NCBI GenBank assembly: GCA_964390005.1
Contig: CAYMGM010000001.1
Coordinates: 129,839 to 193,838, forward strand
Source of the DNA: an uncultured Rhodospirillaceae bacterium
GTDB taxonomy: Bacteria > Pseudomonadota > Alphaproteobacteria > UBA9219
Length of the DNA: 64,000 bases
Direction of reading: 5' to 3'
Shown: piece after piece, positions 24,651 to 55,927 of the stretch
Numbering within the stretch: position 1 is the stretch's first letter
Layout of the letters: each line of letters starts with the position of its first letter
Notes under the pieces: model-generated
The model's input: only the letters and a program-made list of their open reading frames with translations
What the model was told of the DNA's origin: nothing
Databases searched by the model: none
Translations under genes and position numbers: made by a program

Positions 24651-25901
24651 CTACTTCTTGGCATGCTCCATCATGGCGTCTGTGAAATTTGCATCTTTGA
24701 GTTTGGCCTCCGAGAAGTCGGCATAGCGAAGGTCGGCGCCTGTAAAATCCGCATACATCAGGTTTGCGCCATTGAAATTGGCGTAACGCAGATTGGCCCC
24801 TCGGAAAGAGGCGGGCAGCTTGCGCCCGTTGTCAAGCTGCAAAGCCTCAAGCCGCGCATGAGCCAAATTGGCTGAGACCATATTGCAATTGTTAAAATTG
24901 CTGGCGCGAAGATCGGCAAAGGATAGGTTGGATTTTCGGAAATCGCTGCTTTCGAAGATGGCGGCTTGAAGATTGCTGTAAGACAGATCGACGCCATAAA
25001 GAACAGCATTGCGCGCGATCATCATTGTCAGATCGACGGCTTTAAATGTCTTCAAGCCGCGCAGATCGAAACCGGATAAATCCAGTTTTTTACCTTTTTT
25101 ACCTTCGCTTGTGAGCCATTGCTGATGCATGGAAACCAGCTCTTCTGGCGAATAGTCCGTTTTCTCGATCGAATGACCCTGTGGGGTATTGAGAAGCGCG
25201 CCTTCTAAATTGACGTCTTTGACTTTCTTACCCGCCAAATCCATCAATGTCCCGGCAAGATTGGCTCCGGCAAAATTAACGCCCTGCATCGAGACGTTGC
25301 TTAGGTCGGCCCCTGTTAGGTCTGCGCCTTCAAAGTTGGCGTTTTCAAGCTTGCCTTCAGAGATTTTAACGTTTTTAAGAACGGCATCTGCAAAAATCGA
25401 GTTTTGCGTTACGGCGCTTGCCATGCGGACAGATGCCAGATTTGCGCCACTCATATCCGCGCCGCCGACGCCGTCGGCCCAGGCCGAGCCTTCGCTTGAG
25501 AAGGATAAGCCTTTTTCAGGGTCGTAAGAGGCAAAATTGCCTTCGCGTAAATCGGCTTCATGCAAATTAGCGCCGACCAGAATGGCATCTTTTAATGCGG
25601 CGCCGCGTAAATCGGCGCGGACAAGTTGCGCGTTTCGAAAATTGGCTTTGCGCAGATCGCAGGCAAAGAACAAACAATAATTCAGTGTCGATTTTTCAAA
25701 ATTAGATTCATATAAAACAGATCCTGTAAAATCGGCATGAGAGAGATCTTGGCCGTGAAAATCAAGACCGGTCATATCAAAATGAGATAAAAGCGCACGC
25801 GAACCGCCACCACGCCCTTGACGAAACAAGAGATGGTGCTCGATCAAAACATCAAGCTGAGGTTGTGTCAGCTTTTTAAGCGTTTTATTGATATCTGTCA
25901 T
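24651..25901 (-). CDS. pentapeptide-repeat protein (416 aa)
   Basis: Long runs of A(D/N)LxG/A(N/D)FxG pentapeptide repeats across most of the length (for example ADFTGADLRYADFSEAKLKDANFTDA). Confidence 0.8.
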   Translation of the reverse strand: MTDINKTLKKLTQPQLDVLIEHHLLFRQGRGGGSRALLSHFDMTGLDFHGQDLSHADFTGSVLYESNFEKSTLNYCLFFACDLRKANFRNAQLVRADLRGAALKDAILVGANLHEADLREGNFASYDPEKGLSFSSEGSAWADGVGGADMSGANLASVRMASAVTQNSIFADAVLKNVKISEGKLENANFEGADLTGADLSNVSMQGVNFAGANLAGTLMDLAGKKVKDVNLEGALLNTPQGHSIEKTDYSPEELVSMHQQWLTSEGKKGKKLDLSGFDLRGLKTFKAVDLTMMIARNAVLYGVDLSYSNLQAAIFESSDFRKSNLSFADLRASNFNNCNMVSANLAHARLEALQLDNGRKLPASFRGANLRYANFNGANLMYADFTGADLRYADFSEAKLKDANFTDAMMEHAKK

Positions 25902-29369: not shown

Positions 29370-29446
29370 CGGAGAGTAGCTCAGCCTGGTAGAGCACTGC
29401 TTTCGGGAGGCAGGGGCCGGAGGTTCGAATCCTCTCTCTCCGACCA
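29370..29446 (+). tRNA. tRNA-Pro (anticodon CGG)
   Basis: Cloverleaf folded by hand. Acceptor CGGAGAG/CTCTCCG, D-arm GCTC-AGCCTGGTA-GAGC, anticodon stem CTGCT/GGCAG with loop TTCGGGA (anticodon CGG), a T-arm with GGTTCGAATCC, discriminator A, and an encoded CCA. Confidence 0.85.
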
Positions 29447-29486
29447 GTCAAAGAAAAAGGCCCCTTTATGGGGCCTTTTTCTTTGA
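29447..29486 (+). terminator. rho-independent terminator immediately 3' of tRNA-Pro
   Basis: AAAGAAAAAGGCCCC-TTTA-TGGGGCCTTTTTCTTT hairpin with a U-tail. Confidence 0.7.
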
Positions 29487-29615
29487 CTAATTTGGTAGAG
29501 GATACGAACCGGAGAAGGAGGTTTGACCAAACAGTCTGGGAGACTGTTTGGCGCGAGGCGAAGCCGAGATCTGAGCAGCGCGAAGATCAAAAACAGACTT
29601 TAAGTTTGTTTTTGC

Positions 29616-29674
29616 AATCCTCTCTCTCCGACCAGTCAAAGAAAAAGGCCCCTTTATGGGGCCTTTTTCTTTGA
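29616..29674 (+). repeat. 59-bp perfect direct repeat of the tRNA-Pro 3' end plus terminator (a second copy of 29428-29486)
   Basis: AATCCTCTCTCTCCGACCAGTCAAAGAAAAAGGCCCCTTTATGGGGCCTTTTTCTTTGA occurs twice, 129 bp apart. This is an att-site-like scar. Confidence 0.85.
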
Positions 29675-29914
29675 AGGATCGGATGGAGGCGGTAAACCGC
29701 TATATTTGATCGCTGGGAAGGTCAAAGCCACCTTTGGGTAAGGCAGTCGTCGCATATAAAAGAACGATTGTTGGCCCCATCCTGTGCAAGCTTGTTAATA
29801 ATGTATCTTTTTGCGCCTTGTCGATAATTTTATTGTTGTGTGGGAGCCGAAATGAAGTTAGTCTTCGAATCGAATAGACCTTATTCCGAATCTTCTCAAG
29901 AAGGATGTCTTGTA

Positions 29915-30466
29915 ATGAGAATTTTAAAATTTTTAGGCATTATGACCCTTTTGATGGGGCTCTCTTCTGCCGCACAGGCTTCGACGTTAGCTTTTGATCT
30001 TTCGACAGACCCGTCGGGAAGCGGCTTGTTAGCGTCAGGCAAAGGGGCTTTGACCGACAACACGCTGACCTTGAGCTCGATGCCAAGCTACAGCCGTTTG
30101 GTTTTGACCTTCACGTTTATCCCTGCAGCTATCGGGGCAAGTGTTTCGACAGATTATAATGGAAACATTGCTGGGGTTAGCTATATGGGGCCTTCGACTC
30201 CTTACGCTTTTAAGAATACCACGTTGGACCATGGCGTCACGGGCACGCTGGAGGTTTCAAGCTCGGGGGCGGCACTTACCGTTAAAAACATGACGCATGA
30301 TCTGTATACCTTCCAGAATATGCTGGCGGTTTATTTCAGAAATTGTACAGAGGGCGTTGTCAATTATAGTTATACATTGACAGCCATTCCGCTTCCTGCC
30401 GTTTTGCCGCTGTTTGCGGTTGGCGTCTTGGGCTTGGGCGCTGCCAAGAAGCGCCGCAAAGCTTAA
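29915..30466 (+). CDS. secreted protein with a VPLPA-CTERM-type (PEP-CTERM-like) C-terminal sorting signal
   Basis: Signal peptide MRILKFLGIMTLLMGLSSAAQA. The extreme C-terminus is IPLPAVLPLFAVGVLGLGAAKKRRKA, that is, a (V/I)PLPA motif, a TM helix and a basic cluster. The ORF track starts at 29840, but the ATG at 29915 has an RBS. Confidence 0.55.
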   Translation: MRILKFLGIMTLLMGLSSAAQASTLAFDLSTDPSGSGLLASGKGALTDNTLTLSSMPSYSRLVLTFTFIPAAIGASVSTDYNGNIAGVSYMGPSTPYAFKNTTLDHGVTGTLEVSSSGAALTVKNMTHDLYTFQNMLAVYFRNCTEGVVNYSYTLTAIPLPAVLPLFAVGVLGLGAAKKRRKA

Positions 30467-30524: not shown

Positions 30525-31748
30525 TTAACGTCGCGGGAAAAGCCGCGCATCCTCTGGCGTCGGATCGGCGGGGATCTGCGCGCGCGCGTGGCAGTCTTGC
30601 GCCTCGGTTAAAAGGTTCTCAAGAAGGTCCGTGAACAGAACAGGTTTCTCGGCCGCTTCCCACAGGAAAAAGCCAAACGAGCCAGGGCATGGGTTGGCTT
30701 CGTTAAACCAGACATCGCCTGTCACTTCGTTGCAGAGAAAATCAAGGCGCGGGACGCCTGTGCCGCCTGTCGTTTCAAACACCGTTGCCGCCCAAGCGCG
30801 GATATGCGCCTCCATTTCTGGGGCGATTTGCGGGTTGATTTCGCGCGTCAGCGATAACATCCCTTCGCTGGGTTTGGCACCGGGGGTTTTAGATCCGCCC
30901 ATTTTGGGGCTGCCATCCTTTGTGCCGCCTGCGCAATATTTCGTGCGGAAGTCTAAAAGCTCGGTCGAGCGCTTGGGCTTTTCAATCGCCGAGGTTTGGA
31001 TAAGGCCGTTGATGCGGCGCACGGCCACGTTATATTCGACCATGTTCTCGACAAAAGGCTCGAGCAGGGCCGTGTCGTCGAAACGGAAAATACCCGGCAA
31101 GACGTCGGCAACTTCTTGAAAATTATCGACACGTGCCACACCGATGCTGCTTCCCAAATGGGCTGGTTTGATGCAGCAAGGAAAGGCGACATCGCCCATC
31201 AGTGCTTCCAATTCGGCGGCGGTCAGCATAAGCCCCTCTAGCGGGCGTTTGATTTCAAGGAAAGGAAGTTGCGGAACGTCTGTTGCGGCGATCATGCGCT
31301 TGGTCGCGGCTTTGTCCATCAAAACCGCCGAGGCCAGTTGGCGCATGCCGGTATAGGGGACGTTGGCCGTCTCGAACAGGCCCTGAATGCGGCCATCTTC
31401 GCCGACAAGCCCATGAAAAGCCAGAAAAGCGATATCAAAGGGGATCAGGCGCGTTTTGCCGAAAACCCCTTGGGGCATCGTGCGCAGGCAAGGCGTCTCG
31501 GACGGGCCGATATGAAGCGTCACCTGCGTACAGGCCCGCATCGCCTCGCCATTCGGAATATAGAAAGAGCGGTCGCGCAAAGCCTCGCCAATCAGCCAAG
31601 CGCCATTGGGGGCGATATACAAGGGCTGGGCGTCGTAGCGGGCCGGGTCCAAAGCGTCCAAGGCTTGAAGCCCCGTGATGATGCTGACATCATGTTCGGG
31701 CGAACGTCCGCCGAAAAGGACAAGGACTCTTGTTTTTTGACCGGTCAT
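30525..31748 (-). CDS. D-alanine--D-alanine ligase family ATP-grasp enzyme (divergent, with a long omega-loop insertion)
   Basis: N-terminal VLVLFGGRSPEHDVS, a central ATP-grasp region, and the C-terminal RLDFLCNEVTGDVWFNEANPCPG motif, all typical of Ddl. An extra ~35-aa insertion (KYCAGGTKDGSPKMGGSKTPGAKPSEGM) sits before the C-terminal motif. The start is placed at MTGQKTRVLV (31748), whereas the ORF track gives 31826. Confidence 0.8.
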   Translation of the reverse strand: MTGQKTRVLVLFGGRSPEHDVSIITGLQALDALDPARYDAQPLYIAPNGAWLIGEALRDRSFYIPNGEAMRACTQVTLHIGPSETPCLRTMPQGVFGKTRLIPFDIAFLAFHGLVGEDGRIQGLFETANVPYTGMRQLASAVLMDKAATKRMIAATDVPQLPFLEIKRPLEGLMLTAAELEALMGDVAFPCCIKPAHLGSSIGVARVDNFQEVADVLPGIFRFDDTALLEPFVENMVEYNVAVRRINGLIQTSAIEKPKRSTELLDFRTKYCAGGTKDGSPKMGGSKTPGAKPSEGMLSLTREINPQIAPEMEAHIRAWAATVFETTGGTGVPRLDFLCNEVTGDVWFNEANPCPGSFGFFLWEAAEKPVLFTDLLENLLTEAQDCHARAQIPADPTPEDARLFPRR

Positions 31749-31868
31749 GTGAATAATCCGCTTGATGAGACAAAGCCTTGTTGCGCTTTGTCGGTCGAGA
31801 AAAATCAGGGGCCAGCATGCCCCCAATGGCAGAAAATTGTCAAGTCAGCCCATAGGTAAGGCTTTTCG

Positions 31869-32663
31869 TTGCAGCAAAATCCTGTGCATAACGGGCCCCC
31901 GGGCCTCATCGCTCATTCTTTTGACGGCGTGCCTTTGGGGCAATCGCCGTTTCTGATCGTTTGGGGGCATGGCTGGGGACATAATCGGTCTGTCTTTGCG
32001 CCGTTCGCCGCTTCTTTGTCGCGGCAGGCTTCGCATCTGTTGATCGATTTTCCCGGCTTTGGCGCGTCGCCCATGCCGCCGGAGGTTTGGGATACCGCCG
32101 CTTATGCCGATGCTGTGGCCTCTTTGCTCGCGCCGCTGCGCGAACAGGTGCCATTTATCGTGTGGGTGGGGCATTCCTTTGGCTGCCGCGTCGGCATTCA
32201 ACTGGCGGCGCGTCATCCCAAGCTGGTTGATGCGATGGCTTTGATGGCCGGGGCGGGGTTGCCGCGCCATCGCTCGCTTGCGCAGCGTCTTCGTATCAAA
32301 GGCCGCATTCTGTTCTTTAAACTTTGTAAGAAATTGGCCCCGCTGGTCGGGATCAGCGTCGAGGATTTGCGCAACAAATTTGGCAGCGCCGATTATCGTC
32401 AAGCTGGCGCGATGCGCCCGATTTTTTTGAAAACGATCAGCGAAGATCTAACGCCGCAGGCGCGTCAAGTCGCGTGCCCGACGCTTTTACTGTACGGCGA
32501 GCAAGACACCGAAACGCCGCCCGAGATTGGGCAACGTTTGGCCACCTTGATAAAGGGCAGTGAGCTGACCCTTTTGCCGGGGCTGGATCACTACACAATT
32601 TTAGATCGCGGGCGGGCTCTCGTTTTGAAACGCCTGACCGCTTTGATGGAGCGCCTGTCATGA
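31869..32663 (+). CDS. alpha/beta-hydrolase fold protein
   Basis: HGWGHN oxyanion region and a GHSFG nucleophile elbow. 264 aa. TTG start, with an alternative GTG at 31884. Its stop overlaps the start of the next gene (ATGA). Confidence 0.7.
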   Translation: MQQNPVHNGPPGLIAHSFDGVPLGQSPFLIVWGHGWGHNRSVFAPFAASLSRQASHLLIDFPGFGASPMPPEVWDTAAYADAVASLLAPLREQVPFIVWVGHSFGCRVGIQLAARHPKLVDAMALMAGAGLPRHRSLAQRLRIKGRILFFKLCKKLAPLVGISVEDLRNKFGSADYRQAGAMRPIFLKTISEDLTPQARQVACPTLLLYGEQDTETPPEIGQRLATLIKGSELTLLPGLDHYTILDRGRALVLKRLTALMERLS

Positions 32664-34261
32664 CTTCTTTTGGCACGTTGTTGTCGTTGGCTTTCTTTTT
32701 GTATTTTTTAAGCCGTCGCTTGCCGCGTCTTTTGCATATTTTTCAGCAAGAGGAATATGACGGCGCGCGTTTTCTGGCGTGGATTTTGCGCACCTTGGCG
32801 TTCGATCGCCGCGTTTCGGCGCTTTTGCTGGTGGCCGGTGTGGTGGGGGCGCTTTCGCCCGGCGATGTCAAAGCTTATTTGCCTGCCGTTGTGCTGGGGC
32901 TTTCGGCGCGGTACGAACCTGATCCCCGCCAAAGCGCCAAAAAGAAACTGGCGATGACGGCGCGCGCGTCGCGCATTTATTATGTTTCTTTGATTTTGGC
33001 CGGTTTGGCCGCTTGGGGCGGGCTGGCGCTGGGGCACAGTTTTGGCGCAGTGGTCGTGATGCAGCTTTTGCCGCTGACCCTTGTGATCGGCAATGGGCTG
33101 CTCGCGCCCTATGAAACCATGCTGCAAGCCCGTATTCGCCGCCAAGCGATGCAGCATTTGCAGGAAATAGCGCCGCGCGTCGTGGGCATTACGGGGTCTT
33201 TTGGTAAGACGTCGGTCAAACATATTCTGGGCCATGTGTTGACGCTGAACGCGCCTACGCTTTTTACGCCGGGCAGCGTCAATACGTTGATGGGAATCTC
33301 GCGCGTGATCCGCGAAAATCTGCGCAAAGGCTGTAAGTTTTTCCTCGTTGAAATGGGGGCCTATGGCGAAGGCTCGATTGCGCGTTTGTGCGGGTTGACG
33401 CCGCCTTCGGCTGGTATTGTCACGGCTTTGGGCGCGGCGCATTACGAACGGTTTGGCTCGCTGGACGCCGTGGCGCATGCCAAGTTCGAATTAGCCGACG
33501 CTGTTTTAAAGGCCCAAGACGGTTTCGTTGTCGTCCATGAACAAGTTTTGCAGCAGCCCTATGCGCGCGACTATGTCGCCGCGCACCGCGCGCAATTTGT
33601 CGTTTGCGGTGTCGAGGCCGATGCCGATTTGCGTTATGAAGCGCCGCTTCAGACTCCAAACGGTCTTGAGGTCGCGGTGGCGTGGCAAGGACAAAACTAC
33701 ACCCTTTTTGCCCCGCTTTATGGGGTGCAGCATGGCGGGAATATGGCGCTGGCCTTCGCTTGCGCGGCGAAGCTTGGCATCGCGCCCGATCGCATTGTGG
33801 CCGCTTTGCGCAGTACGCCGCAAATCACGCATCGTTTAGAGGTCAAGAATCTGAACGAGCCATCGGTAATGATTGATGATGCCTATAATTCAAACCCGGC
33901 TGGTTTTCAGGCGGCGCTGGGCATTTTGGACATGCTGGGGCAGCATAAAAAAGCCCGCCGCGTTTTAGTGACACCGGGCGTGACCGAGCTTGGCGTTCAA
34001 CATGACGCTGTTCACAAAACCTTGGGGGAAGAGGCGGCGGCGCGGACGGATATTGCGCTGGTTGTCCGGCCCGATGTTTTGAAGTCCTTTATCGAAGGCT
34101 ATGAAAGCGCTAGCGGCACTGGAAAAGTCGTGCCTGTCGCCGATTTGACAGCGGCGCGGGCGTGGCTTGCGGCCCACCCGGCGGCAGCGCCGTTTACAGG
34201 CGATGTCGTTTTGTTCGAAAACGATTTGCCGGATGTTCTTGAGCGCCGTTTGAGCCTTTAA
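32660..34261 (+). CDS. membrane-anchored Mur ligase family protein (MurF-like)
   Basis: An N-terminal ~170 aa with about 4 predicted TM helices is followed by the Mur ligase P-loop GITGSFGKTSVKHIL, a central domain, and the C-terminal DDAYNSNP motif as in MurF. 533 aa. Confidence 0.75.
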   Translation: MTSFGTLLSLAFFLYFLSRRLPRLLHIFQQEEYDGARFLAWILRTLAFDRRVSALLLVAGVVGALSPGDVKAYLPAVVLGLSARYEPDPRQSAKKKLAMTARASRIYYVSLILAGLAAWGGLALGHSFGAVVVMQLLPLTLVIGNGLLAPYETMLQARIRRQAMQHLQEIAPRVVGITGSFGKTSVKHILGHVLTLNAPTLFTPGSVNTLMGISRVIRENLRKGCKFFLVEMGAYGEGSIARLCGLTPPSAGIVTALGAAHYERFGSLDAVAHAKFELADAVLKAQDGFVVVHEQVLQQPYARDYVAAHRAQFVVCGVEADADLRYEAPLQTPNGLEVAVAWQGQNYTLFAPLYGVQHGGNMALAFACAAKLGIAPDRIVAALRSTPQITHRLEVKNLNEPSVMIDDAYNSNPAGFQAALGILDMLGQHKKARRVLVTPGVTELGVQHDAVHKTLGEEAAARTDIALVVRPDVLKSFIEGYESASGTGKVVPVADLTAARAWLAAHPAAAPFTGDVVLFENDLPDVLERRLSL

Positions 34262-34437
34262 ACATCGCGCCAAGCATTGTGCATCGCAGCGTAAAAGAGG
34301 CCATAATTTTGCTGCGCCGCAACATGGTTAATATTTCTTGTAAGGCCGTTTTTCTTGTGCTTTTCTGAGCGCTTCGGAGCTTCTTGTTCAAGAAGAGGAT
34401 CCGTTTTGTTTGTCTCAAAGAAAGAACGCAACCGATT

Positions 34438-34689
34438 ATGTGTGCTTTGCAACAAGAAAAACTTCGCGCCTGTTTCACAGAAGCCTTAGTTTTGCCCGCC
34501 GAGACGGATTTAGAAACGCTGCGCTATCAATCCATACCGGCGTGGGATTCGATTGGGCACATGCGTTTGATCGCGGCGATCGAAGGCGCGTTTAACATCA
34601 TGCTGACAACGGACCAGATTTTGGATCTCAGTTCGTATGCCAAAGCGTGCGAGATTTTGGGGGCTCATGGTGTCGCTAGCGAGTCCTGA
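34438..34689 (+). CDS. acyl carrier protein
   Basis: 84 aa from MCALQQ. The phosphopantetheine-attachment context is WDSIGHMRLIAAIEGAFNI (DSI/DSL motif with the Ser). Confidence 0.7.
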   Translation: MCALQQEKLRACFTEALVLPAETDLETLRYQSIPAWDSIGHMRLIAAIEGAFNIMLTTDQILDLSSYAKACEILGAHGVASES

Positions 34690-35425
34690 TCCATCTGACG
34701 TGCGTCCCGTCGCCGTCGTCACTGGCGCTTCGCGCGGGATTGGCGCGGCCATCGCGCGGTGCTTGGCGCGTGATGGCTATCGCTTGGCGCTGACCGCACG
34801 CGGACATGACGCGCTCATCGCTTTGCAAAACGATCTGGGAAGCGAAGACGTTTTTGTCATGGCGGGCGATGTTGCCGATACGGCTTTTGTGCAAAGCTTT
34901 TATCAAGCGGTGCAAACCCGCTTTGGCCGGATTGATGTGTTGGTGGCCAATGCCGGACAATTGGCCAATGCGCCGCTTGGCCTGATTGCGCCCGAGATGG
35001 CGGACAAGGCTTTTGATGTCAACGTGCTTGGCGTTCTTTCTCACATGCAGATGGCCGCGCGTTTTATGCGCCGTACGAAACAAGGCGCGATGATTTTGAT
35101 GGGCAGTATTATCGGCACGCAGGGCGGCATTGGCCAGACCGTTTACGCGGCGACCAAAGCCGCTTTGGTTGGCATGGCGCTTTCCGCGGTGAAAGAGCTG
35201 GGGCCGGACGGGATCACCGTCAATGTCATTGCGCCCGGCATGATCGATACCGACATGTTGGCCGATTTGTCTGACGCGAAGATTGCGGCGCGTCTTGAGC
35301 AGGTGGCCCTGCGCCGCGTCGGCCAACCGCAGGAAGTTGCGGATCTCGTCTCTTTTCTGGCGTCTGACAAGGCGCGCTATATCACAGGCCAAGTCATTGG
35401 CATTGACGGAGGAATGGTGATTTAA
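34667..35425 (+). CDS. SDR-family oxidoreductase (3-oxoacyl-ACP reductase-like)
   Basis: TGASRGIG cofactor motif, an NAG motif and YAATKAAL (catalytic YxxxK). About 252 aa. It overlaps the ACP stop. Confidence 0.8.
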   Translation: MVSLASPDPSDVRPVAVVTGASRGIGAAIARCLARDGYRLALTARGHDALIALQNDLGSEDVFVMAGDVADTAFVQSFYQAVQTRFGRIDVLVANAGQLANAPLGLIAPEMADKAFDVNVLGVLSHMQMAARFMRRTKQGAMILMGSIIGTQGGIGQTVYAATKAALVGMALSAVKELGPDGITVNVIAPGMIDTDMLADLSDAKIAARLEQVALRRVGQPQEVADLVSFLASDKARYITGQVIGIDGGMVI

Positions 35426-36835
35426 ATGATCGTTTTCACACTGCCTTTTCTGCCCAATACCGTGTTGCATCGCGCGCTTGTTCCCGACGATACACCTGCC
35501 TTGTTCGATGACAAATCGGTCGCGTGGACGACCTATGGCGAGGTGCGTGAGAAAATCGACGCCATGCAGGTTTGTTTTGCCGCGCTTGAAAAAGATCTGA
35601 TCTTCTGCGTCGCGCCGCGAACGGTCGATGGCGCTGTGGCCTATATGGGGGCAACGGCTTCAGGCCATGCTGTCGCGCTGGTCGATCCTTCTATGACGCA
35701 TTTGCGCGGCGTTGTTGCCGCGTACCGTCCGCGCTGGATCATGGCACCGCTGGATCATGCGTATCAAGGCTATGGCAAGGTCGAAGATTTTCCTTTGACG
35801 GGGATGGCGCTTTGGAAACGCTTTGGCGAAGCGGGCGGCTTTATCCATCCGCGCCTTTATTTGATTTTGCTGACATCGGGATCGACCGGCAGCAGCAAAG
35901 GCGTGCGCCTTTCTTATGCAAATGTGGCCAGCAACACGTCGGCGGTGATCGAAAGCCTGTCGATGGAGGGCGGCGTTTGCGCGGTGGGGCATTTGCCTTT
36001 GTCTTATTCCTTTGGGCTCTCGGTTCTTAACACGGCGATGGCTGTGGGCGGGCGCGTTTTGCTGACAGAAGAGGGGATGATGAGCCCCGCTTTCTGGTCG
36101 CGTGCCCGCGCGCAAGAAGCCAATCTGTTCCCCGGCGTTCCGTATCATTTTGAGATGCTGCTGCGCCTGTCGCTGGAAGGGCTGAAGATTCCGTCGCTGA
36201 AAACCTTTTTGCAGGCTGGCGGTAAAATGCCGGTTCCCATGACGCAAAAAGTTCTTGAGGCGGTCATGGCGCGGCAAGGCGGGCTTTACATCATGTATGG
36301 CCAAACAGAAGCCAGCCCGCGCATTTCATCGTTTCCGCTTCACTTGCATCCAGAAAAAATCGGCTCATCAGGTATCCCCATGTCGGGCGGCCATGTCGAG
36401 ATCGTCGATAACGAGATTATCTATCACGGACCGAACGTGATGATGGGCTATGCGATCACGCGCGAAGATTTGTGCAAAGGCGACGGCATGCATGGGCGCT
36501 TGCCGACGGGCGATCACGGCTCTGTGGATGCTGACGGTTATTTGACCGTTTTGGGCCGCGAAAAACGCATTGCCAAGCTTTACGGTCAGCGCGTGGCGTT
36601 GGACGATCTGGAAAAGTTTGCGGCAGCATTGGCCCCCGTCGTTGCGATTGAGCGCGATCAGCAAATCTTGCTGATTACCACGGCGGCAGAAGAAAGCCTG
36701 CGCGACCGGATCAAAGCCTTGGTGATGAGCGAAACGGGCTTGCCGCCGACATGGCTTGAGGTGCGCTCGGTTGCCGATATTCCGCACCAGCCGAACGGCA
36801 AGGTCGATTACCAGCGCCTCCGAGCCGAAGCGTGA
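35426..36835 (+). CDS. AMP-dependent synthetase/ligase (acyl-CoA or acyl-ACP synthetase-like)
   Basis: AMP-binding motif LTSGSTGSSKGV and a YGQTEA motif. 469 aa. It starts 1 nt after the SDR stop. Confidence 0.8.
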   Translation: MIVFTLPFLPNTVLHRALVPDDTPALFDDKSVAWTTYGEVREKIDAMQVCFAALEKDLIFCVAPRTVDGAVAYMGATASGHAVALVDPSMTHLRGVVAAYRPRWIMAPLDHAYQGYGKVEDFPLTGMALWKRFGEAGGFIHPRLYLILLTSGSTGSSKGVRLSYANVASNTSAVIESLSMEGGVCAVGHLPLSYSFGLSVLNTAMAVGGRVLLTEEGMMSPAFWSRARAQEANLFPGVPYHFEMLLRLSLEGLKIPSLKTFLQAGGKMPVPMTQKVLEAVMARQGGLYIMYGQTEASPRISSFPLHLHPEKIGSSGIPMSGGHVEIVDNEIIYHGPNVMMGYAITREDLCKGDGMHGRLPTGDHGSVDADGYLTVLGREKRIAKLYGQRVALDDLEKFAAALAPVVAIERDQQILLITTAAEESLRDRIKALVMSETGLPPTWLEVRSVADIPHQPNGKVDYQRLRAEA

Positions 36836-37929
36836 GCCAGCAAGAGGGAACAGCGCTCGACGCTTTGTTCGCGCTTCCCTATGCCAGCCTTGCCCAAGCG
36901 GAAAAAGAGCGGCAACTGTTTCCGCTGCTGCGCGATGGGCTTGCCTATCACCGCGCGGCTTGCCCTGCTTTTGATCGGATTGTCGCGCGCGCTTTTCCGG
37001 ACGAGCCTGTGGGGCTCGATACCTTGCCCTATCTTCCGATCTCGCTGTTCAAGGACCGGCGTTTGCTTAGCGTGCCCGCGACGGAGGTGCGCGTGGCGGT
37101 TCAGTCCAGCGGCACCAGCGCCAGCGGGCTTAGTCAGGTTGCTTTAACGGCGGATGATGCGCGGCGTACCGCGCGGTCGCTCGCCTCGATCTTAAAGACG
37201 GTTTTAGGGCCTGTGCGCTTGCCCATGCTGTTCATCGACACGCCAGATGTTCTGAAAGGTGGGGGCGCTGTCGGGGCGCGTGCGGCGGCGATTTTGGGTT
37301 TAATGCCTTATGGCCGCGATCACCGTTTTGTCCTGAACGAAGCTTGGGAATTGGATGAAAATGCGCTGCTTGATTTTCTTGCCAAGAACGGGAGTAAGCC
37401 TTTTGTGATTTATGGTTTTACTTTTCTTGTTTGGCAGGCGCTGGCGCCTTTTTGCGCATCGCACCGCGTGGATCTTTCGAACGCGCTTTTGCTGCATAGC
37501 GGCGGGTGGAAAAAACTGCAAAGCCTTGCCGTTGATAATGCCGCTTTTCGCCATGCTTTTGCCGCGCAGGCTGGGCTGACACACATTGTCAATTTTTACG
37601 GCATGGCTGAAATGCCGGGTGTTGTTTTTCTGGAAAACGCAGACGGTCTTTTTTATCCGCCAAGCTTTGCCGACGTTTTGATCCGCGATCCGGTGACGCT
37701 TGCGCCGCTGCCTGTGGGGCAAGCGGGGCTGGTGCAGTGGATCAATCCACTGCCGCGCAGCTATCCCGGCCTTTCCGTTTTGACCGAAGACCTTGGCATT
37801 GTTGAAACCATCGATAGCAATGTCAGTGGTTGGAAAGGCCAAGCGCTTCGTCTGATCGGGCGCGCCCCAAAGGCTGAAATGCGCGGCTGCAGCGATGTGT
37901 TGGCGCAAAAAATAAGCGGGGAGGTCTGA
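36832..37929 (+). CDS. LuxE-family acyl-protein synthetase
   Basis: VQSSGTSASG, LHSGGWKKL and VLTEDLG correspond to the FTSSGTNG, ITGGGWK and IVTDDVG motifs of Vibrio LuxE. 365 aa. 4-bp overlap with the upstream gene. Confidence 0.7.
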   Translation: MSQQEGTALDALFALPYASLAQAEKERQLFPLLRDGLAYHRAACPAFDRIVARAFPDEPVGLDTLPYLPISLFKDRRLLSVPATEVRVAVQSSGTSASGLSQVALTADDARRTARSLASILKTVLGPVRLPMLFIDTPDVLKGGGAVGARAAAILGLMPYGRDHRFVLNEAWELDENALLDFLAKNGSKPFVIYGFTFLVWQALAPFCASHRVDLSNALLLHSGGWKKLQSLAVDNAAFRHAFAAQAGLTHIVNFYGMAEMPGVVFLENADGLFYPPSFADVLIRDPVTLAPLPVGQAGLVQWINPLPRSYPGLSVLTEDLGIVETIDSNVSGWKGQALRLIGRAPKAEMRGCSDVLAQKISGEV

Positions 37930-39128
37930 TGATCCAGTTTCATTTTGCCGCCACGCCACTAAAGGATTTAGAAGATCTTCGTAACGCCTGCCTTGCCGCG
38001 AAAGCGCAGCCTTTGGCTTTTGCCGACCCTAGCGTGCAGGCCTTTGCCCGCGCTTTGTCGGCGGGGTTGCTACAGGATCCTTTGGCCAAAGCTTTTCCGG
38101 CTTGCACGGCCTTTGGGTTTTGGCTGCGGGCCGCTGCGCTGGATGATTTAACGGCGCGTGTGCAAGCGGGATCGGTTGGACGCGCGCCTGCCGGGGCTGT
38201 CTTTTTAATGCCCCCTTCCAACGTGACAACGCTTTTTGCTTACACGGCGCTTTTATCACTTTTATGCGGCAATGTGACGCTGGTTCGCCTGCCGCAGACG
38301 CCCAGCGCGGCGCAAGATTATCTGCTGAGCCATTTTCTACGGGCGCTGGACCAAGCCCCGGATGCATTACGGCAGAAGCTGTTTCTTTTAGGTTATGGTC
38401 ACGATGACGCGATCACCACGGCCTTATCGGCGCTTGCAGACAGGCGTTTTGTCTGGGGGGCTGATGAAACAATTGCGCATATCGGCTCGTTGCCTTTGCC
38501 AGCGGGGGCGCATCATATCGGTTTTGGCGATCGCTTTTCCGCTGCGACCATCGGCGCAGAGGGTTATTTGGCTTTAGACGATCAGGCCAAAGATCATCTG
38601 GCGCGTCTGATGGCCGCCGATATTTACAGCTTTGATCAATTGGCTTGTTCGTCGCCGCGTGCGCTGTTTTGGATTGGCAGCGCCGATACGGTGCAAAAAG
38701 CGCGCGCCGATTATTACCCGCGTCTGACCGCAGCGGCTGAAGCGCGCGGCTATGCGCTTGACGCGGCTCAAGCCATTGCGCGCCGCCGCGCGGCTTTTCT
38801 GGCGCTTCATGATCTTCAAACGCAGTTCTATTGGGGGGCGTCAAAGGCGTTGGCCGTGATCGGCTTGGCGACAGCTGAAGAATTAGAGCCTTTTAAAACA
38901 GTATCTTATGGTTTTGGCCTTTTGCTTGATGCCTGTTGCCCCTCGCTTGAGGCTGTTCTATCAATAGCCAGCGCGCGCGATCAAACGCTAAGCTATGCTT
39001 GCCTGCCTGCGGTGCCGACCGAGCAAACAGCGTATGATCGAATGGTCCCGGTTGGCCGCGCGCTAGATTTTGACGTGAGATGGGACCGCATAGATTTGAT
39101 CGAGGCGATGACACGCCAGCAAGGATGA
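37929..39128 (+). CDS. LuxC-family acyl-CoA reductase-like protein
   Basis: 399 aa. It is the immediate partner of the LuxE-like gene, with a Cys-containing DQLACSSP motif in the position expected for a LuxC catalytic Cys. The family call rests partly on context. Confidence 0.5.
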   Translation: MIQFHFAATPLKDLEDLRNACLAAKAQPLAFADPSVQAFARALSAGLLQDPLAKAFPACTAFGFWLRAAALDDLTARVQAGSVGRAPAGAVFLMPPSNVTTLFAYTALLSLLCGNVTLVRLPQTPSAAQDYLLSHFLRALDQAPDALRQKLFLLGYGHDDAITTALSALADRRFVWGADETIAHIGSLPLPAGAHHIGFGDRFSAATIGAEGYLALDDQAKDHLARLMAADIYSFDQLACSSPRALFWIGSADTVQKARADYYPRLTAAAEARGYALDAAQAIARRRAAFLALHDLQTQFYWGASKALAVIGLATAEELEPFKTVSYGFGLLLDACCPSLEAVLSIASARDQTLSYACLPAVPTEQTAYDRMVPVGRALDFDVRWDRIDLIEAMTRQQG

Positions 39129-39134
39129 AGCAAG

Positions 39135-39776
39135 ATGTCAAAACTAATCATTGTAGGCGCGGGGGGCTTTGGCCTTGAGGTCGCCGCCTATGCCGAGGAC
39201 GCGCGCGCGGCACAAGCCGCGCAGCCCGAAATCATCGGCTTCTGCGATGACACAAAACCCAAAGGTGCGCAGCATGCGGGCTATCCCGTCATCGCGAACA
39301 CGGATGATCCCATTGATCCCACCGCGCTTTATATCTTGGCGGTTGGCTTTCCGGCTGCGCGGCGCGCGTTGGCTGAAAAACTGGCGGCTAAAGGGGCCCA
39401 GTTTCATACGCTGATCCACCCGCAAAGCTATGTCGCGCGGACGGCACGCCTTGCGCCGGGATGTATAGTTGTTCCGTTCGCGACGGTGGGGCCGATGGCC
39501 GTTTTGGGTCCGCACACAATGCTGAATTACCATGCGGTCTTTGGCCACGAAGCGCAGGCTGGTGATTTTTGCGTTTTATGCCCGTATGCCTGCGTCCACG
39601 GCACGGCTGTTTTAGAAGACGATGTCTTTATTGGCAGCGGCGGTTATGTCACGCGCGGCTTGCGTATTGGGCAAGGCTCGAAAATTGCCGCAAACGCTGT
39701 CGTTTATAATGATATCCCGCCGGGCGCGTTGGCGCTTGGCAATCCCGCCGTTTGCAGGAAGGAGCCGAACGCATGA
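39135..39776 (+). CDS. NeuD/PglD-family hexapeptide-repeat N-acyltransferase
   Basis: An N-terminal Rossmann-like IIVGAGGFGLEV is followed by left-handed beta-helix hexapeptide repeats (VFIGSGGYV, IGQGSKIAANAVV). 213 aa. Confidence 0.75.
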   Translation: MSKLIIVGAGGFGLEVAAYAEDARAAQAAQPEIIGFCDDTKPKGAQHAGYPVIANTDDPIDPTALYILAVGFPAARRALAEKLAAKGAQFHTLIHPQSYVARTARLAPGCIVVPFATVGPMAVLGPHTMLNYHAVFGHEAQAGDFCVLCPYACVHGTAVLEDDVFIGSGGYVTRGLRIGQGSKIAANAVVYNDIPPGALALGNPAVCRKEPNA

Positions 39777-40411
39777 AATATTCTTTTTCCATTTTGGCGG
39801 CTTTGGTTTTTCTGACGTCTCCGGCGTTCGCTCAGGGCACGACGGCAGCCGATCCTGAGGCGCGCCTGGCCGCTTGTCTGCAACGCGCCGAAGCCTTGCC
39901 CGATCAAACGAAGGTTGAAGCCGATGCATGGCTTAAGAAAGGCGGCGGCGATCGCGCGCAATTGTGCCGGGCTTATGCGCAGCTGCATCGCGGCGATTAT
40001 GTCTCGGCGGCGCAGGGGTTTTTGTTCCTTGCGCAAAAGCGCCCAAAAACAGACCATGTGCAGCGCGCGAAATTGCTTGAACAAGCAGGGCTTGCCTATA
40101 TGCAGGCGCATGAAGCTGGCCATGCCGAAAGTTCCTTTGCGGCGGCTTTGAAAGAAACGCCAGGGCAGGGGGATCTGCTTTACGACCGCGCCAACGCGCG
40201 CGCCGCTGGCGACAAGCTGTGGGAAGCTTTGGACGATCTGAAACTTGTTTTGAAGAAAGAACCCGAAAGGGTCGATGCCTTGCGCCTTTCGGGACATACT
40301 TGGATCAAGCTGGGGTACGAAAGCAAAGGCAAAGCCGATTTGCTGTTGGCCGAGCAATTGGCAACGGGCGGCGATCCGCGCGACAAAAAACAGGATAAGT
40401 CCGCGCCATGA
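39773..40411 (+). CDS. periplasmic TPR-like repeat protein
   Basis: Signal peptide MKYSFSILAALVFLTSPAFAQG, then helical TPR-like repeats. Its start ATGA overlaps the acyltransferase stop. The ORF track starts at 39752. Confidence 0.5.
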   Translation: MKYSFSILAALVFLTSPAFAQGTTAADPEARLAACLQRAEALPDQTKVEADAWLKKGGGDRAQLCRAYAQLHRGDYVSAAQGFLFLAQKRPKTDHVQRAKLLEQAGLAYMQAHEAGHAESSFAAALKETPGQGDLLYDRANARAAGDKLWEALDDLKLVLKKEPERVDALRLSGHTWIKLGYESKGKADLLLAEQLATGGDPRDKKQDKSAP

Positions 40412-41247
40412 TCGTGACGCGCTTTGCGCCAAGCCCGACGGGATATCTGCATCTCGGGCACGCTTATTCGGCTTGTCTGGCCTATGACTTGGCGCAGGAA
40501 AAGGGCGGGCGTTTTATCTTAAGGATTGAAGATATCGACCCCACGCGCTGCAAAGACATCTACGTCCAAGCGTTGCTTGAGGATTTAGCCTGGCTCGGCC
40601 TTGCTTGGGAGACGCCCGTTCGCCGCCAATCCGAACACCTGGCCGATTACGGCGCGGCGCTTGATCGTTTACAGGCGATGGGGCTTTTGTATCCGTGTTT
40701 TTGCACGCGCCAAGATATTCGCGCCGAGGTCGCGGCGGCTTTATCCGCGCCCCAAGGCCCCGATGGCCCTGTTTATCCCGGCGCTTGCAAGCCTTTGTCT
40801 CCCGATGAGGTTGCTGCGCGGCAGCAAGCCGGTATCCCTTTTTCGTGGCGGCTTGATATGGCGCGCGCCTGCCGGATGGCCCCCAGCCTGTCGTGGCAGG
40901 AAGAAAACCAAGGCCCGATTGCGGCGCGCCCCGAAGCTTTTGGCGATATTGTTTTGGCGCGTAAAGAATGCCCCACCAGCTATCACCTAAGCGTGACGGT
41001 TGACGATGCGCTTCAAGGCGTGACCGATATTGTCCGTGGCCAAGATTTGTTCGCGGCCACGGCCATCCATCGTTTGTTGCAGGTTTTGTTGGATCTTCCC
41101 GCGCCGCGCTATCATCATCACCGACTTTTATGCGGGCCCGACGGCAAACGCCTTGCCAAACGCGATCACGCCAAAGCCTTGCGCACATTACGCGCCGAAG
41201 GCCTGACACCCAGCGATGTTCGGCAGCTTTTCGTTACGGCAAAATAA
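40408..41247 (+). CDS. gluQ: glutamyl-Q tRNA(Asp) synthetase (truncated GluRS paralog)
   Basis: HLGH motif in TRFAPSPTGYLHLGHAYSA, an RIEDID motif and a KLAKRD (KMSKS-like) motif. 279 aa, with no anticodon-binding domain. Confidence 0.85.
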   Translation: MIVTRFAPSPTGYLHLGHAYSACLAYDLAQEKGGRFILRIEDIDPTRCKDIYVQALLEDLAWLGLAWETPVRRQSEHLADYGAALDRLQAMGLLYPCFCTRQDIRAEVAAALSAPQGPDGPVYPGACKPLSPDEVAARQQAGIPFSWRLDMARACRMAPSLSWQEENQGPIAARPEAFGDIVLARKECPTSYHLSVTVDDALQGVTDIVRGQDLFAATAIHRLLQVLLDLPAPRYHHHRLLCGPDGKRLAKRDHAKALRTLRAEGLTPSDVRQLFVTAK

Positions 41248-45930: not shown

Positions 45931-46178
45931 GAGACCCCTCCCTAGCTTTGTTACAGTTACCTATTATCCACCATTTCTCTTACGAAATGAATAAGAGAAC
46001 ATAAGTCATGCCTAGCCATTTGTAAAATAATGATATTTTTCAATATCAAAACACACATTTGTTGGTAAAAGCTGCGTGAATCAGGTTTAAAGCCCATGAT
46101 TCCTTGCGAAAAAAGGCGTTTTGTGCCAAAAAGTTGCTTGAAAAGGCTCCAGCAAAAAACAAAGAAAAAGGGAATTTC

Positions 46179-47285: not shown

Positions 47286-47294
47286 CGGCCCCTT

Positions 47295-48380: not shown

Positions 48381-48385
48381 TGGTG

Positions 48386-49435: not shown

Positions 49436-49556
49436 GTAAAATCGGAGTCTATGACGTCGGCAGGGCGCGGCCATAGCCAAGCGCGGTTACGTGGCGTTCG
49501 CTTTATAAATAAGGAACGATGACGGATATTTTTCTTCGATCGTTTTTTCTATATCT

Positions 49557-50492: not shown

Positions 50493-50636
50493 AGTGCCGT
50501 CTCGATCTTTTGTTTCAGTATTTCTTATGTTATGAACAGGATCATCCGAGATGGCAAGTTCTCACTTTTCGAATGAAGATAAAAAGCGTGTCTTCAAAGA
50601 TTTTGGTTAATATTTTGTCCTTCGCTTAGACAAAAA

Positions 50637-55624: not shown

Positions 55625-55644
55625 GCGTTCTTGATTTCTAGAGA

Positions 55645-55920: not shown

Positions 55921-55927
55921 CTTTCAC

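Follow-up and report, generated by a model that had tools for sequence, protein, structure and literature searches.

Side-by-side location of a putative peptidoglycan-precursor module and a putative sugar-acylation cassette in an uncultured alphaproteobacterium: probably two independent gene modules

The region 30525-41247 of the analysed window (the whole stretch of DNA, 64,000 nucleotides) probably comprises two independent gene modules placed side by side, together with two unrelated genes, the gene of a TPR protein and gluQ (Table 1). Module A consists of three genes (30525-34261), and Module B (34438-39776) encodes an acyl carrier protein (ACP), an SDR, an AMP-dependent ligase, LuxE-like and LuxC-like proteins and a NeuD/PglD transferase. 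The joint reading that we favour, at somewhat better than even confidence and on the grounds of sequence comparison, is that Module A would provide a variant of peptidoglycan precursor synthesis and that Module B would N-acylate an amino sugar. All 11 genes listed by the original prediction are present and the domains were called correctly, since Pfam and NCBIfam assignments agree with them. In line with its statement that the organism's murC-F/ddl locus is not in the window, no Mur-ligase or Ddl genes were found there besides the two of Module A.

The original prediction had joined all these genes into one coupled pathway, in which the acyl-ACP/Lux module would give a fatty acyl group and the Ddl and Mur ligases would join it to amino acids at the membrane, to yield a lipo-amino-acid or lipopeptide. 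Such a pathway would agree with the co-directional and tightly packed genes from the hydrolase through gluQ, with the membrane-embedded Mur ligase and with the envelope being a common concern of both modules. However, the gene-neighbourhood conservation check, which covered 83 + 83 independent loci, never placed Module A and Module B within a shared locus elsewhere: ACP, AMP-ligase, LuxE, LuxC and NeuD genes are absent within 10 kb of the Mur-ligase family (0/83 loci), and Ddl-like, hydrolase and membrane Mur-ligase genes are absent at LuxE-like loci (0/83 foreign loci). The single-pathway thesis fails by the prediction's own test for refutation, as relatives do not keep these genes together. 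The conserved contexts are separate as well, i.e., the dcw cluster and penicillin-binding proteins (PBPs) in one case and amino-sugar and glycosyltransferase genes in the other, and gluQ would need to be a member of the pathway too. The missing conservation refutes the one-pathway model for the most part, and we regard such a pathway as extremely unlikely.

The gene junctions point in the same direction. The tight packing of the proposed 10-gene operon was confirmed, as overlaps of 4 bp (hydrolase/Mur ligase, AMP-ligase/LuxE, NeuD/TPR and TPR/gluQ) or 1 bp (LuxE/LuxC) and gaps of 0 bp (SDR/AMP-ligase) or 6 bp (LuxC/NeuD) were found, but one clear break had been missed. It is a 176-bp spacer of low GC content (0.45 vs 0.57 in the genes) that separates the Mur ligase from the ACP, at the very place where comparative genomics sets the module boundary, and it also speaks against a single pathway, although the modules may still be co-transcribed across it. 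Neither a Rfam match nor a consensus terminator or promoter was found in it, and no consensus promoter was found in the divergent region upstream of the hydrolase and Ddl-like genes either. Next to the cassette, the TPR gene and gluQ were found in this organism's own contigs only, and gluQ was never linked to Module A or Module B in other organisms (83 Mur-ligase and 83 foreign LuxE loci). It closes the array as a housekeeping passenger; both genes merely follow Module B in the same orientation. The TPR protein gave no Pfam match.

Table 1. Features of the region 30525-41247 (positions in the window).
Feature	Positions	Strand	Basis and remarks
Module A: long Ddl-family ATP-grasp ligase, 407 aa	30525..31748	-	PF01820 + PF07478 (Ddl N and C domains); divergent from hydrolase
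Divergent intergenic region, Ddl-like gene/hydrolase	31749..31883	.	135 bp
Module A: cytoplasmic alpha/beta-fold serine hydrolase, 259 aa	31884..32663	+	Pfam/NCBIfam; longest ORF from 31869
Module A: membrane-anchored MurF-like ligase, 533 aa	32660..34261	+	Mur_ligase_M + Mur_ligase_C; best NCBIfam match murF
Non-coding spacer between modules	34262..34437	.	176 bp, GC 0.45
Module B: acyl carrier protein, 83 aa	34438..34689	+	PF00550, 20.2 bits; WDSIGH serine motif
Module B: FabG-type SDR	34667..35425	+	adh_short_C2, 192 bits; longest ORF from 34637
Module B: AMP-dependent (adenylate-forming) ligase	35426..36835	+	PF00501
Module B: LuxE-like acyl-protein synthetase	36832..37929	+	PF04443, 151 bits
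Module B: LuxC-like acyl reductase (ALDH-type)	37929..39128	+	PF05893, 85.6 bits
Module B, optional member: NeuD/PglD-family hexapeptide N-acyltransferase	39135..39776	+	TIGR03570, 166.8 bits (cutoff 160.8); PglD_N + Hexapep
Secreted TPR protein, 212 aa, outside both conserved modules	39773..40411	+	Signal peptide ending ...AFA/QG; weak TPR-type NCBIfam matches
gluQ, glutamyl-Q tRNA(Asp) synthetase (GluQ-RS)	40408..41247	+	PF00749, 178 bits

The start of the Ddl-like gene at the ATG at 31748 is backed by homologues (the longest ORF extends to 31826), and the 407-aa product is already recorded as a called gene. The protein shares both Ddl domains with DdlA/DdlB and the S. aureus enzyme (2I80) and matches PDB Ddl entries down to E 1e-35; with the best NCBIfam Ddl models it reaches 203-206 bits, under their cutoffs of 245-262. 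In the alignment with 59 orthologues the Ddl catalytic motifs are retained, with equivalents of E15, H63, S150, K215-Y216, R255, D257, E270 and N272 (numbered after E. coli DdlB), and a conserved insert of ~25 aa follows the omega-loop KY. In contrast to canonical Ddl, the Module A protein is about 405 aa long, its insert contains a GM motif and its C-terminal substrate loop has the sequence PGS..LWE in place of the canonical serine-containing one. The insert is also missing from H. pylori Ddl (2PVP). The hydrolase has the EstV family as its best NCBIfam match, yet it reaches 104 bits vs the cutoff of 300 and is therefore not an EstV equivalog. EstV of H. pylori is HP0739, located between ddlA and murF.

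The membrane anchoring of the Mur ligase had been predicted correctly. Residues 1 to ~165 form a helical, membrane-spanning part (hydrophobic helices in the AF2 model; no Pfam match in residues 1-160), and residues 166-533 carry the MurF-type central and C-terminal domains, in which the P-loop, the Mg ligands, the DDxYNxNP motif and a Lys, by position the one expected to be carbamylated, are invariant in the family. It differs from MurF (E. coli 1GG4, A. baumannii 4QDI) in that the N-terminal UDP-binding PF01225 is replaced by the multi-helix membrane domain of ~165 aa with its own invariant motifs, and in that an alpha/beta hydrolase gene invariably accompanies its own. The missing UDP-MurNAc-binding N-domain and the scores of both ligases, under the curated MurF and Ddl cutoffs, count against the proposed role of Module A in peptidoglycan precursor synthesis.

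The gene context argues for this role. The trio is horizontally scattered and was found across at least six phyla (83 Mur-ligase-family loci); only three protein families are regular neighbours of the Mur ligase (77, 66 and 59 loci), and the next commonest one was found in 7. In Micavibrio-like alphaproteobacteria the trio is located inside the dcw cell-wall cluster, with the Ddl-like gene in the ddl slot. Three of these loci (L006, L011, L013) have the order murE-[152-aa ORF]-mraY-murD-ftsW-murG-murC-murB-(membrane Mur ligase, hydrolase)-Ddl-like-ftsQ-ftsA-ftsZ-lpxC, except that murB was not seen in the dcw stretch of L006, and three others (L010, L012, L021) cover a part of the same arrangement. 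Within the arrangement covered no canonical murF or ddl was found, and no murF between murE and mraY. The earlier statement that none of the genes is needed for housekeeping peptidoglycan synthesis may be wrong. At another locus (L004) canonical Ddl, canonical MurF and an M15 dipeptidase precede the hydrolase and the membrane Mur ligase, with a PBP1A gene 1.5 kb downstream; since canonical MurF stands beside the membrane ligase in this gene row, the latter need not be isofunctional with MurF. Class B PBP genes are located downstream at L072 and L074, and an M15 VanX-like gene was found in 7/83 Mur-ligase loci.

Homology, the retained catalytic motifs, the synteny between phyla and the location inside dcw clusters allow Module A to be viewed as a putative self-contained 'D-Ala-D-X branch' variant of peptidoglycan precursor synthesis, of which we infer the dipeptide and the acceptor. 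The ATP-grasp enzyme would make a D-aminoacyl dipeptide, and the MurF-type ligase, anchored by its helical family-specific domain to the cytoplasmic face of the membrane, would couple it, via an acyl-phosphate intermediate, to a muramyl-peptide precursor at its free carboxylate, presumably with the translationally coupled serine hydrolase as an obligatory partner. Portable sets of an alternative Ddl-family ligase and an extra MurF-type ligase, sometimes with a VanX-family M15 dipeptidase, are found in clusters of the glycopeptide-resistance type (vanHAX, with murF2 in some actinomycetes). In contrast to those, VanH and VanX are absent from the window, the Ddl-like protein keeps the omega-loop Lys-Tyr as D-Ala-D-Ala ligases do, the M15 proteins associated with Module A score far under the VanX/DdpX cutoffs and no regulator is conserved. 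A similar hydrolase-murF-ddl neighbourhood, compared by gene order as described, is present in C. jejuni, where the alpha/beta hydrolase gene Cj0796c has murF (Cj0795c) as its neighbour and ddl (Cj0798c) a short way upstream; no deletion of Cj0796c could be obtained, and the gene is possibly essential and was suggested to have a role in peptidoglycan synthesis (PMC5530802).

Module B has a five-gene core, ACP-SDR-AMP-ligase-LuxE-LuxC, the order and spacing of which are kept in almost all sufficiently long loci (83 foreign). Relative to LuxE, the AMP-ligase is directly upstream in 76/85 loci, LuxC directly downstream in 75/85 and an ACP orthologue 2.3-2.4 kb upstream in 51/85, while the SDR position is conserved in 54/85; NeuD/PglD occurs within 6 kb of the cassette in 24/85, usually flanking it directly. 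The SDR start (about 34667) was set to match the situation in L122, where ACP and SDR overlap by 23 bp; the protein scores 217 bits with TIGR01830, under the 297.75 cutoff, and no NCBIfam model reached its cutoff for the AMP-ligase. The C-terminal Arg-Gly-Cys of the LuxE-like protein (R351, G352, C353) is invariant and located 12 residues from the C-terminus, and in LuxE the C-terminal motif is TRxxKGCxLS with Cys364 (PMC9157457). Elsewhere the cassette often neighbours amino-sugar and glycan genes, i.e., those of DegT aminotransferases, GT4s, Bac_transf and PglF-like dehydratases. No amino-sugar genes were found next to Module B in the window, where one has to go about 5 kb further, past the sdh genes, to reach the nearest polysaccharide locus, and this absence counts against sugar acylation as its function.

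From the conserved gene order and the glycan-gene neighbours we infer the chemistry of Module B, that is N-acylation of an amino sugar. Adenylation of an acid and its loading onto the dedicated ACP would be accompanied by tailoring, probably to a hydroxyacyl group, through the SDR and the LuxE/LuxC pair (adenylation, Cys-thioester, reduction to aldehyde), and the PglD/NeuD-type transferase would pass the acyl to a nucleotide-linked amino sugar, at its amino group. Of the products guessed initially, the N-acylated amino sugar fits the acyl module, but a lipo-conjugate joining both modules does not hold. The tetronate of V. cholerae O1 is synthesized and transferred to perosamine by rfbKLMNO, presumably coding for ACP, AMP-ligase, dehydrogenase, LuxC/LuxE-like protein and hexapeptide acyltransferase, so that a hydroxyacyl group N-acylates an amino sugar. 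The likeness to Module B is one of gene types, and the dehydrogenase is of a different kind, as Module B has an SDR. The O1 antigen itself is tetronate-acylated perosamine (PMC6479008). The cassette ACP/3-oxoacyl-ACP reductase/AMP-dependent synthetase/luxE/luxC was described in flagellin glycosylation islands of Aeromonas group II and of enterobacteria (PMC7874193, with the genes named orf1, orf2, orf3, luxE and luxC; PMC4875605). All five gene types and their order are shared with Module B; however, pse and flagellin genes are absent from the window, and Module B ends in the NeuD/PglD transferase, away from glycosyltransferase genes. The earlier remark that no characterised pathway is matched holds for the membrane Mur ligase.

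Other functions of either module have to be weighed. Module A may modify a lipid-linked peptidoglycan precursor, attaching a residue or dipeptide to the stem-peptide carboxylate, rather than replace MurF. Here MurT/GatD would serve as a model, in which a Mur-type ligase without the N-domain acts on lipid II and a hydrolase partner supplies or prepares the nucleophile; we consider this possible by analogy, though rather unlikely. A product outside peptidoglycan, such as a poly-amino-acid of the cyanophycin-synthetase-like or poly-gamma-glutamate-like kind or a lipid peptide head group, seems doubtful: cyanophycin synthetase likewise combines ATP-grasp and Mur-ligase chemistry, but the trio is repeatedly found with peptidoglycan genes (dcw clusters, PBPs, canonical Ddl/MurF), the similarity to MurF is far above that to CphA, FolC or MurT, and no conserved exporter or polymer-processing gene was found near the Mur ligase. 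As for Module B, the LuxE and LuxC Pfam domains, i.e., the folds shared with LuxCDE of luminous bacteria, and the conserved cysteine, acylated within the flexible C-terminal motif of LuxE, could indicate a genuine LuxCDE-like fatty-acid reductase, which would give fatty aldehyde or alcohol for wax or lipid metabolism. Yet the LuxE and LuxC equivalog scores (62 vs 550 and 15.7 vs 750 bits) are far under the cutoffs, luxD and luxAB are absent, and the cassette always has its own ACP and AMP-ligase and is often found with the PglD/NeuD sugar N-acyltransferase in glycan loci (PMC7874193), which makes such a reductase highly improbable.

Module B is probably a sugar-acylation cassette, of a kind already met in the surface-glycan gene clusters of other bacteria. 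The interesting part of the region is the apparently uncharacterised Module A, a widespread and unstudied trio akin to the final cytoplasmic steps in the making of cell-wall precursors.

All genes named by the original prediction were recovered by ORF listing and translation, followed by Pfam and NCBIfam scans, on which the gene calls are based. The tight junctions it described were also found, since the genes overlap or are separated by gaps of 6 bp or less, with one exception that had gone unreported, namely a 176-bp spacer between the Mur ligase and the ACP gene, with a GC content of 0.45 vs. 0.57 in the flanking genes. Rfam as well as promoter and terminator scans of the spacers returned only a tRNA and sub-threshold matches. 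As had been stated, the window contains no murC-F/ddl locus, and these two genes are its only Mur ligase and Ddl. The region is flanked by housekeeping genes, i.e., a ppiD-like gene, tpiA and tRNA-Pro on one side and a NUDIX gene and sdhBA on the other, and the PADLOC defence models gave zero matches for eight of its proteins.

Coordinates of the genes of the region, of neighbouring features in the window and of features in loci (L-numbers) fetched from other genomes
Feature	Locus	Coordinates	Strand	Remark
Pentapeptide-repeat protein, 416 aa	window	24651-25901	-	
tRNA-Pro(CGG)	window	29370-29446		
74-nt direct repeat	window	29428-29501 and 29616-29689		91% identical; within 29370-29689
Secreted protein, 208 aa	window	29840-30466	+	
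Ddl-family ATP-grasp ligase	window	30525-31748	-	start ATG at 31748 according to homologues and recorded gene call
Alpha/beta hydrolase	window	31884-32663	+	
Mur-family ligase, 533 aa	window	32660-34261	+	
Spacer, 176 bp	window	34262-34437		between Mur ligase and ACP
ACP, 83 aa	window	34438-34689	+	
FabG-type SDR	window	about 34667-35425	+	
AMP-dependent ligase	window	35426-36835	+	
LuxE-like protein	window	36832-37929	+	
LuxC-like protein	window	37929-39128	+	
NeuD/PglD-family acyltransferase	window	39135-39776	+	
TPR protein with signal peptide	window	39773-40411	+	
gluQ	window	40408-41247	+	end of array
Polysaccharide locus	window	46104-58612		GC 0.44-0.49; beyond sdh genes
ORF of 152-156 aa	L006	19372-19830	-	
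ORF of 152-156 aa	L011	9474-9932	-	
ORF of 152-156 aa	L013	19415-19885	-	
ORF of 152-156 aa	L021	20449-20913	-	
Gene row with canonical MurF	L004	4434-11548		
Trio with M15 dipeptidase and class B PBP	L072, L074	9232-16820		Pseudalkalibacillus
Class A beta-lactamase	L169	11640-12464		2.2-Mb contig
Polysaccharide deacetylase + DUF3473	L090	5086-5925		
Module B next to dcw start	L088	8341-21095		

On the tRNA side of the region, a 74-nt direct repeat is composed of the last 19 nt of tRNA-Pro(CGG) and a perfect hairpin with a 19-bp stem; it may be either an att-like scar or a terminator that was duplicated. A genomic island bounded by the tRNA was ruled out, because the tRNA-Pro 3′ repeat is present in two copies only, 188 bp apart; as the window has no further copy, the repeat does not mark the bounds of an island around Modules A and B. 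The neighbouring secreted protein has no Pfam or NCBIfam match and no homologue in related loci; its C-terminus, IPLPAVLPLFAVGVLGLGAAKKRRKA, resembles a PEP-CTERM/VPLPA-CTERM sorting tail, a hint that the source organism may have an exosortase system. The pentapeptide-repeat protein is encoded among housekeeping genes (mfd, ppiD-like).

The eleven genes had been predicted to form one coupled lipo-conjugate pathway. With the Mur ligase as a probe, 83 loci including 10 kb of flank on either side were collected (80 from species-representative genomes, three by exact-protein look-up) and searched by tblastn with all eleven window proteins. The hydrolase was found in 71 and the Ddl-like gene in 65 of these loci, while ACP, AMP-ligase, LuxE, LuxC, NeuD and gluQ were found in none of the 83 within these 10-kb flanks. 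All-against-all clustering of the ORFs from the same loci gave three recurrent families alone, i.e., the ligase (77 loci), the hydrolase (66) and the Ddl-like protein (59), the next commonest neighbour occurring in seven. The LuxE-like protein as a probe yielded 85 loci, two of which are the source organism's own contigs. AMP-ligase accompanies it in 76, LuxC in 75, SDR in 54 and ACP in 51 of them, the shortfalls being mostly due to short contigs, and the offsets from LuxE are the same as in the window (about −1.35 kb for AMP-ligase, +1.1 kb for LuxC, −2.1 kb for SDR and −2.35 kb for ACP). In 24/85 loci the cassette has a NeuD/PglD gene no more than 6 kb away, usually as its direct flank; the TPR gene and gluQ stand beside Module B solely in the source organism's own contig (L084). 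Neither the Ddl-like gene nor the hydrolase nor the membrane Mur ligase occurs in any of the 83 foreign LuxE loci. Both modules thus never occur together in these loci (0/83 and 0/83), which, by the prediction's own criterion of conservation in relatives, largely refutes the single coupled pathway: the region consists of two modules and passengers, so that the observation behind the original prediction was largely right and its unifying interpretation was not. A Module B cassette can come to lie near Mur ligases by chance, as in locus L088, where the cassette, with a PglD-like gene, is placed between galactofuranosyl-transferase/Glf genes and a canonical dcw start (mraZ...murE, murF, mraY).

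The combination of genes was said to match no characterised pathway; the acyl module in itself is a cassette that is on record. The group II flagellin glycosylation islands of Aeromonas list the same core as orf1, orf2, orf3, luxE and luxC (PMC7874193), and the cassette is also found among the fatty-acid-synthesis-like genes of enterobacterial flagellin glycosylation islands (PMC4875605); a lipid-like decoration of the glycan was suggested by the authors of both studies (PMC7874193; PMC4875605). The window holds the five gene types (ACP, FabG, AMP-ligase, LuxE, LuxC) in the order of the flagellin islands. Related Module B loci do lie in flagellin, pseudaminic-acid or polysaccharide-type loci, unlike that of the window, where no such locus surrounds Module B, no sugar genes adjoin it, and its flanks are Module A on one side and the TPR gene, gluQ, the NUDIX gene and sdh on the other. 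In the fetched loci the cassette is surrounded by genes for amino sugars and glycans, among them DegT aminotransferases (10 loci), GT4 transferases (7) and Bac_transf; galactofuranosyl transferases with Glf (L088); and a full PglF/PglE/PglC-like set, accompanied by a flippase, that immediately follows the PglD-like gene (L109). A polysaccharide deacetylase with DUF3473 recurs in L090 and three other loci, and the second-best NCBIfam match of the AMP-ligase is an exosortase-A-associated acyl-CoA ligase; on these two grounds a link of the cassette to PEP-CTERM/exosortase exopolysaccharide systems is possible.

In the luminescence LuxE a flexible Cys364 motif carries the acyl group to LuxC (PMC9157457). 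The LuxE-like family resembles the LuxCDE fatty-acid reductase in this respect, since an invariant Arg-Gly-Cys, 12 residues from the C-terminus, matches the Cys364 motif, but the window proteins score far below the luminescence models (62 vs. 550 bits for NF052244, LuxE; 15.7 vs. 750 bits for NF052251, LuxC), and the eleven genes called in the region include no luxD and no luciferase/luxAB-type gene. The NeuD/PglD protein matches PF17836 and PF00132 and exceeds the cutoff of TIGR03570 (NeuD/PglB/VioB family; 166.8 vs. 160.8 bits). Most likely, Module B synthesizes a tailored acyl group and transfers it to a nucleotide amino sugar: the acyl group would be tailored, probably hydroxylated, on the dedicated ACP, and the PglD/NeuD enzyme would then move it to the amino group of the sugar. 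The closest characterised analogue is, we assume, the tetronate cassette rfbKLMNO of V. cholerae O1. The polysaccharide genes nearest to Module B form a low-GC locus beyond the sdh genes, with three GT4 and two GT2 glycosyltransferases, an Acyl_transf_3 O-acyltransferase, a Wzx-like flippase and a pyruvyl transferase; that this locus supplies the recipient of the acyl group is speculation. Module B matters less here, being a known cassette, of unsolved biochemistry, that provides the surface sugars of bacteria with unusual N-acyl groups.

It is the trio of Module A that is worth following, as it is widespread and in some lineages is located where murF and ddl should be. For the trio the claim of novelty held: a literature search found no publication on a membrane MurF or on a Mur-ligase/ATP-grasp/hydrolase neighbourhood, and databases label the proteins merely as "MurF", "Mur ligase family protein" or "alpha/beta hydrolase". 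Residues 166-533 of the ligase are MurF-like by every measure used. They score 176.3 bits with TIGR01143 (murF) and about 50 bits with the MurE, MurD and MurC models of NCBIfam, the MurF scores being below the cutoffs (288.6 bits for TIGR01143; 91.6 vs. 544 bits for PRK14093, alphaproteobacterial MurF), and the family profile matches E. coli MurF (1GG4, E 1e-40). The central ATPase and C-terminal domains of MurF are present with their catalytic motifs, and 24 homologues share without exception the P-loop, Mg ligands, DDxYNxNP motif and a lysine where the carbamylated residue would be. The UDP-MurNAc-binding N-domain (PF01225) gave no Pfam match in the ligase; alignments begin at model position 63 of TIGR01143 and at residue 95 of 1GG4, and residues 1-165 form instead a helical, hydrophobic membrane domain with an invariant motif LHIFQQ(E/D)EY and basic stretch K94-K95...R102...R105. 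This domain alone was searched against 1.84 billion representative proteins; it is N-terminal in every one of the 278 matches, and the full-length ones are about 500-565 aa, the size of the membrane Mur ligase family, so that the domain appears specific to this family. The Lipocone (VanZ-type) superfamily was considered as its home and rejected, as the paper on that superfamily yielded no link to Mur ligases. The ATP-grasp and Mur-ligase modules are not closest to CphA, as they would be in a cyanophycin-synthetase-like polymerase.

The Ddl-like protein (PF01820, PF07478) has the N and C (ATP-grasp) domains of Ddl with their catalytic residues, and the catalytic motifs are conserved across an alignment of 59 orthologues. 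It keeps the equivalents of DdlB E15, H63, S150, K215-Y216, R255, D257, E270 and N272 and scores 203-206 bits, below the curated NCBIfam cutoffs of 245-262. It departs from the canonical omega-loop and C-terminal substrate-loop geometry by a conserved insert of about 25 aa after the omega-loop KY and by a C-terminal loop PGS..LWE vs. the canonical serine-containing loop. VanH dehydrogenase and VanX dipeptidase are both absent from the window, so no VanHAX-type cluster is present there. The alignments identify the two enzymes as predicted Ddl-type and MurF-type ligases with intact catalytic machinery. In the hydrolase, which has no signal peptide and a generic esterase/lipase fold, the invariant Ser98 (in GHSFG), Asp208 and His236 are read as a putative catalytic triad. 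Among the NCBIfam models, the hydrolase matches the EstV lipase family best (104 bits vs. cutoff 300), and EstV of H. pylori, which we take to be HP0739, presumably lies between ddlA and murF. Likewise, in C. jejuni the gene of an alpha/beta-fold hydrolase, Cj0796c, adjoins the housekeeping murF (Cj0795c) and is closely preceded by ddl (Cj0798c); Cj0796c resisted deletion, and the authors of that study proposed for it a role in peptidoglycan synthesis (PMC5530802).

The two ligases and the serine hydrolase constitute a unit that is conserved across phyla and repeatedly embedded in peptidoglycan gene sets. In 62 of 77 intact cases the hydrolase immediately precedes the ligase on the same strand. 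The Ddl-like gene lies upstream in divergent orientation in Alphaproteobacteria, Acidobacteriota and Bdellovibrio-like MAGs, and directly downstream in Bacteroidota, Firmicutes and Actinomycetota. The chromosomal position of the trio varies by lineage, and several of its settings suggest a link with peptidoglycan. Loci of Micavibrio-like alphaproteobacteria carry it within the division/cell-wall (dcw) cluster. The fullest of these (L006, L011, L013) read murE, an ORF of 152-156 aa, mraY, murD, ftsW, murG, murC and murB (the last not seen in L006), followed by the ligase and hydrolase on the opposite strand, the Ddl-like gene abutting ftsQ, and then ftsA, ftsZ and lpxC; L010, L012 and L021 cover part of this arrangement. 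The Ddl-like gene thus occupies the canonical ddl slot, and no canonical murF was found between murE and mraY in the Micavibrio-like clusters that carry the trio. Their Ddl-like proteins share 51-53% and their ligases 42-47% identity with those of the window, similar to other alphaproteobacterial copies. The ORF in the usual place of murF is conserved, has no Pfam match and was absent when sought in the window.

Other contexts are of a similar kind. In L004 the hydrolase and the membrane Mur ligase come after an 810-aa tandem double-Ddl, a canonical MurF (333 bits, above cutoff) and an M15 VanX-family protein in the same gene row, with a PBP1A gene 1.5 kb downstream, which shows that the membrane ligase can coexist with canonical MurF. 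M15 genes accompany the trio in 7/83 Mur-ligase loci; the order hydrolase, membrane Mur ligase, Ddl-like gene, M15 dipeptidase and class B PBP in L072 and L074 resembles an alternative cell-wall module that is complete in itself. In L169 the trio is directly followed by a gene for a class A beta-lactamase.

We propose, from the conserved Lys-Tyr of the omega loop, that the Ddl-like enzyme would make D-Ala-D-Ala or a D-Ala-D-X dipeptide; the membrane ligase would join it, via an acyl phosphate, to the muramyl-tripeptide carboxylate at the inner membrane face, the acceptor being UDP-MurNAc-tripeptide or a lipid-linked precursor. It is the genomic context, i.e., dcw embedding with an empty murF slot, that suggests addition of D-Ala-D-Ala to UDP-MurNAc-tripeptide. 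The ligase may then substitute for MurF, for which the empty slot and also the missing UDP-binding domain speak, or may perform a distinct step in the manner of MurT/GatD, to which the coexistence with canonical MurF in L004, and probably also in most alphaproteobacteria, points. The fullest form of the idea is that the trio, a horizontally mobile set that has gone unrecognised, provides another way to perform the canonical Ddl and MurF steps, in which a membrane-embedded ligase without a UDP-binding domain adds D-Ala-D-X and requires a serine-hydrolase partner, and that the trio has displaced murF and ddl from the Micavibrio-like dcw; we offer it as a tentative and rather unlikely reading, under which the ligase may use a lipid-linked tripeptide precursor beside MraY.

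The essential enzymes MurF and Ddl, which have long been considered invariant, are targets of antibiotics (D-cycloserine, glycopeptides, MurF inhibitors). A widespread MurF-type membrane ligase that has no nucleotide-binding domain, invariably comes with a serine hydrolase and sometimes stands in the cell-wall cluster instead of the canonical genes would change this picture. If the trio is a true functional alternative, it would represent a second architecture for the last cytoplasmic step of peptidoglycan precursor synthesis and would give a testable role to the possibly essential hydrolase beside murF in Campylobacter and Helicobacter.
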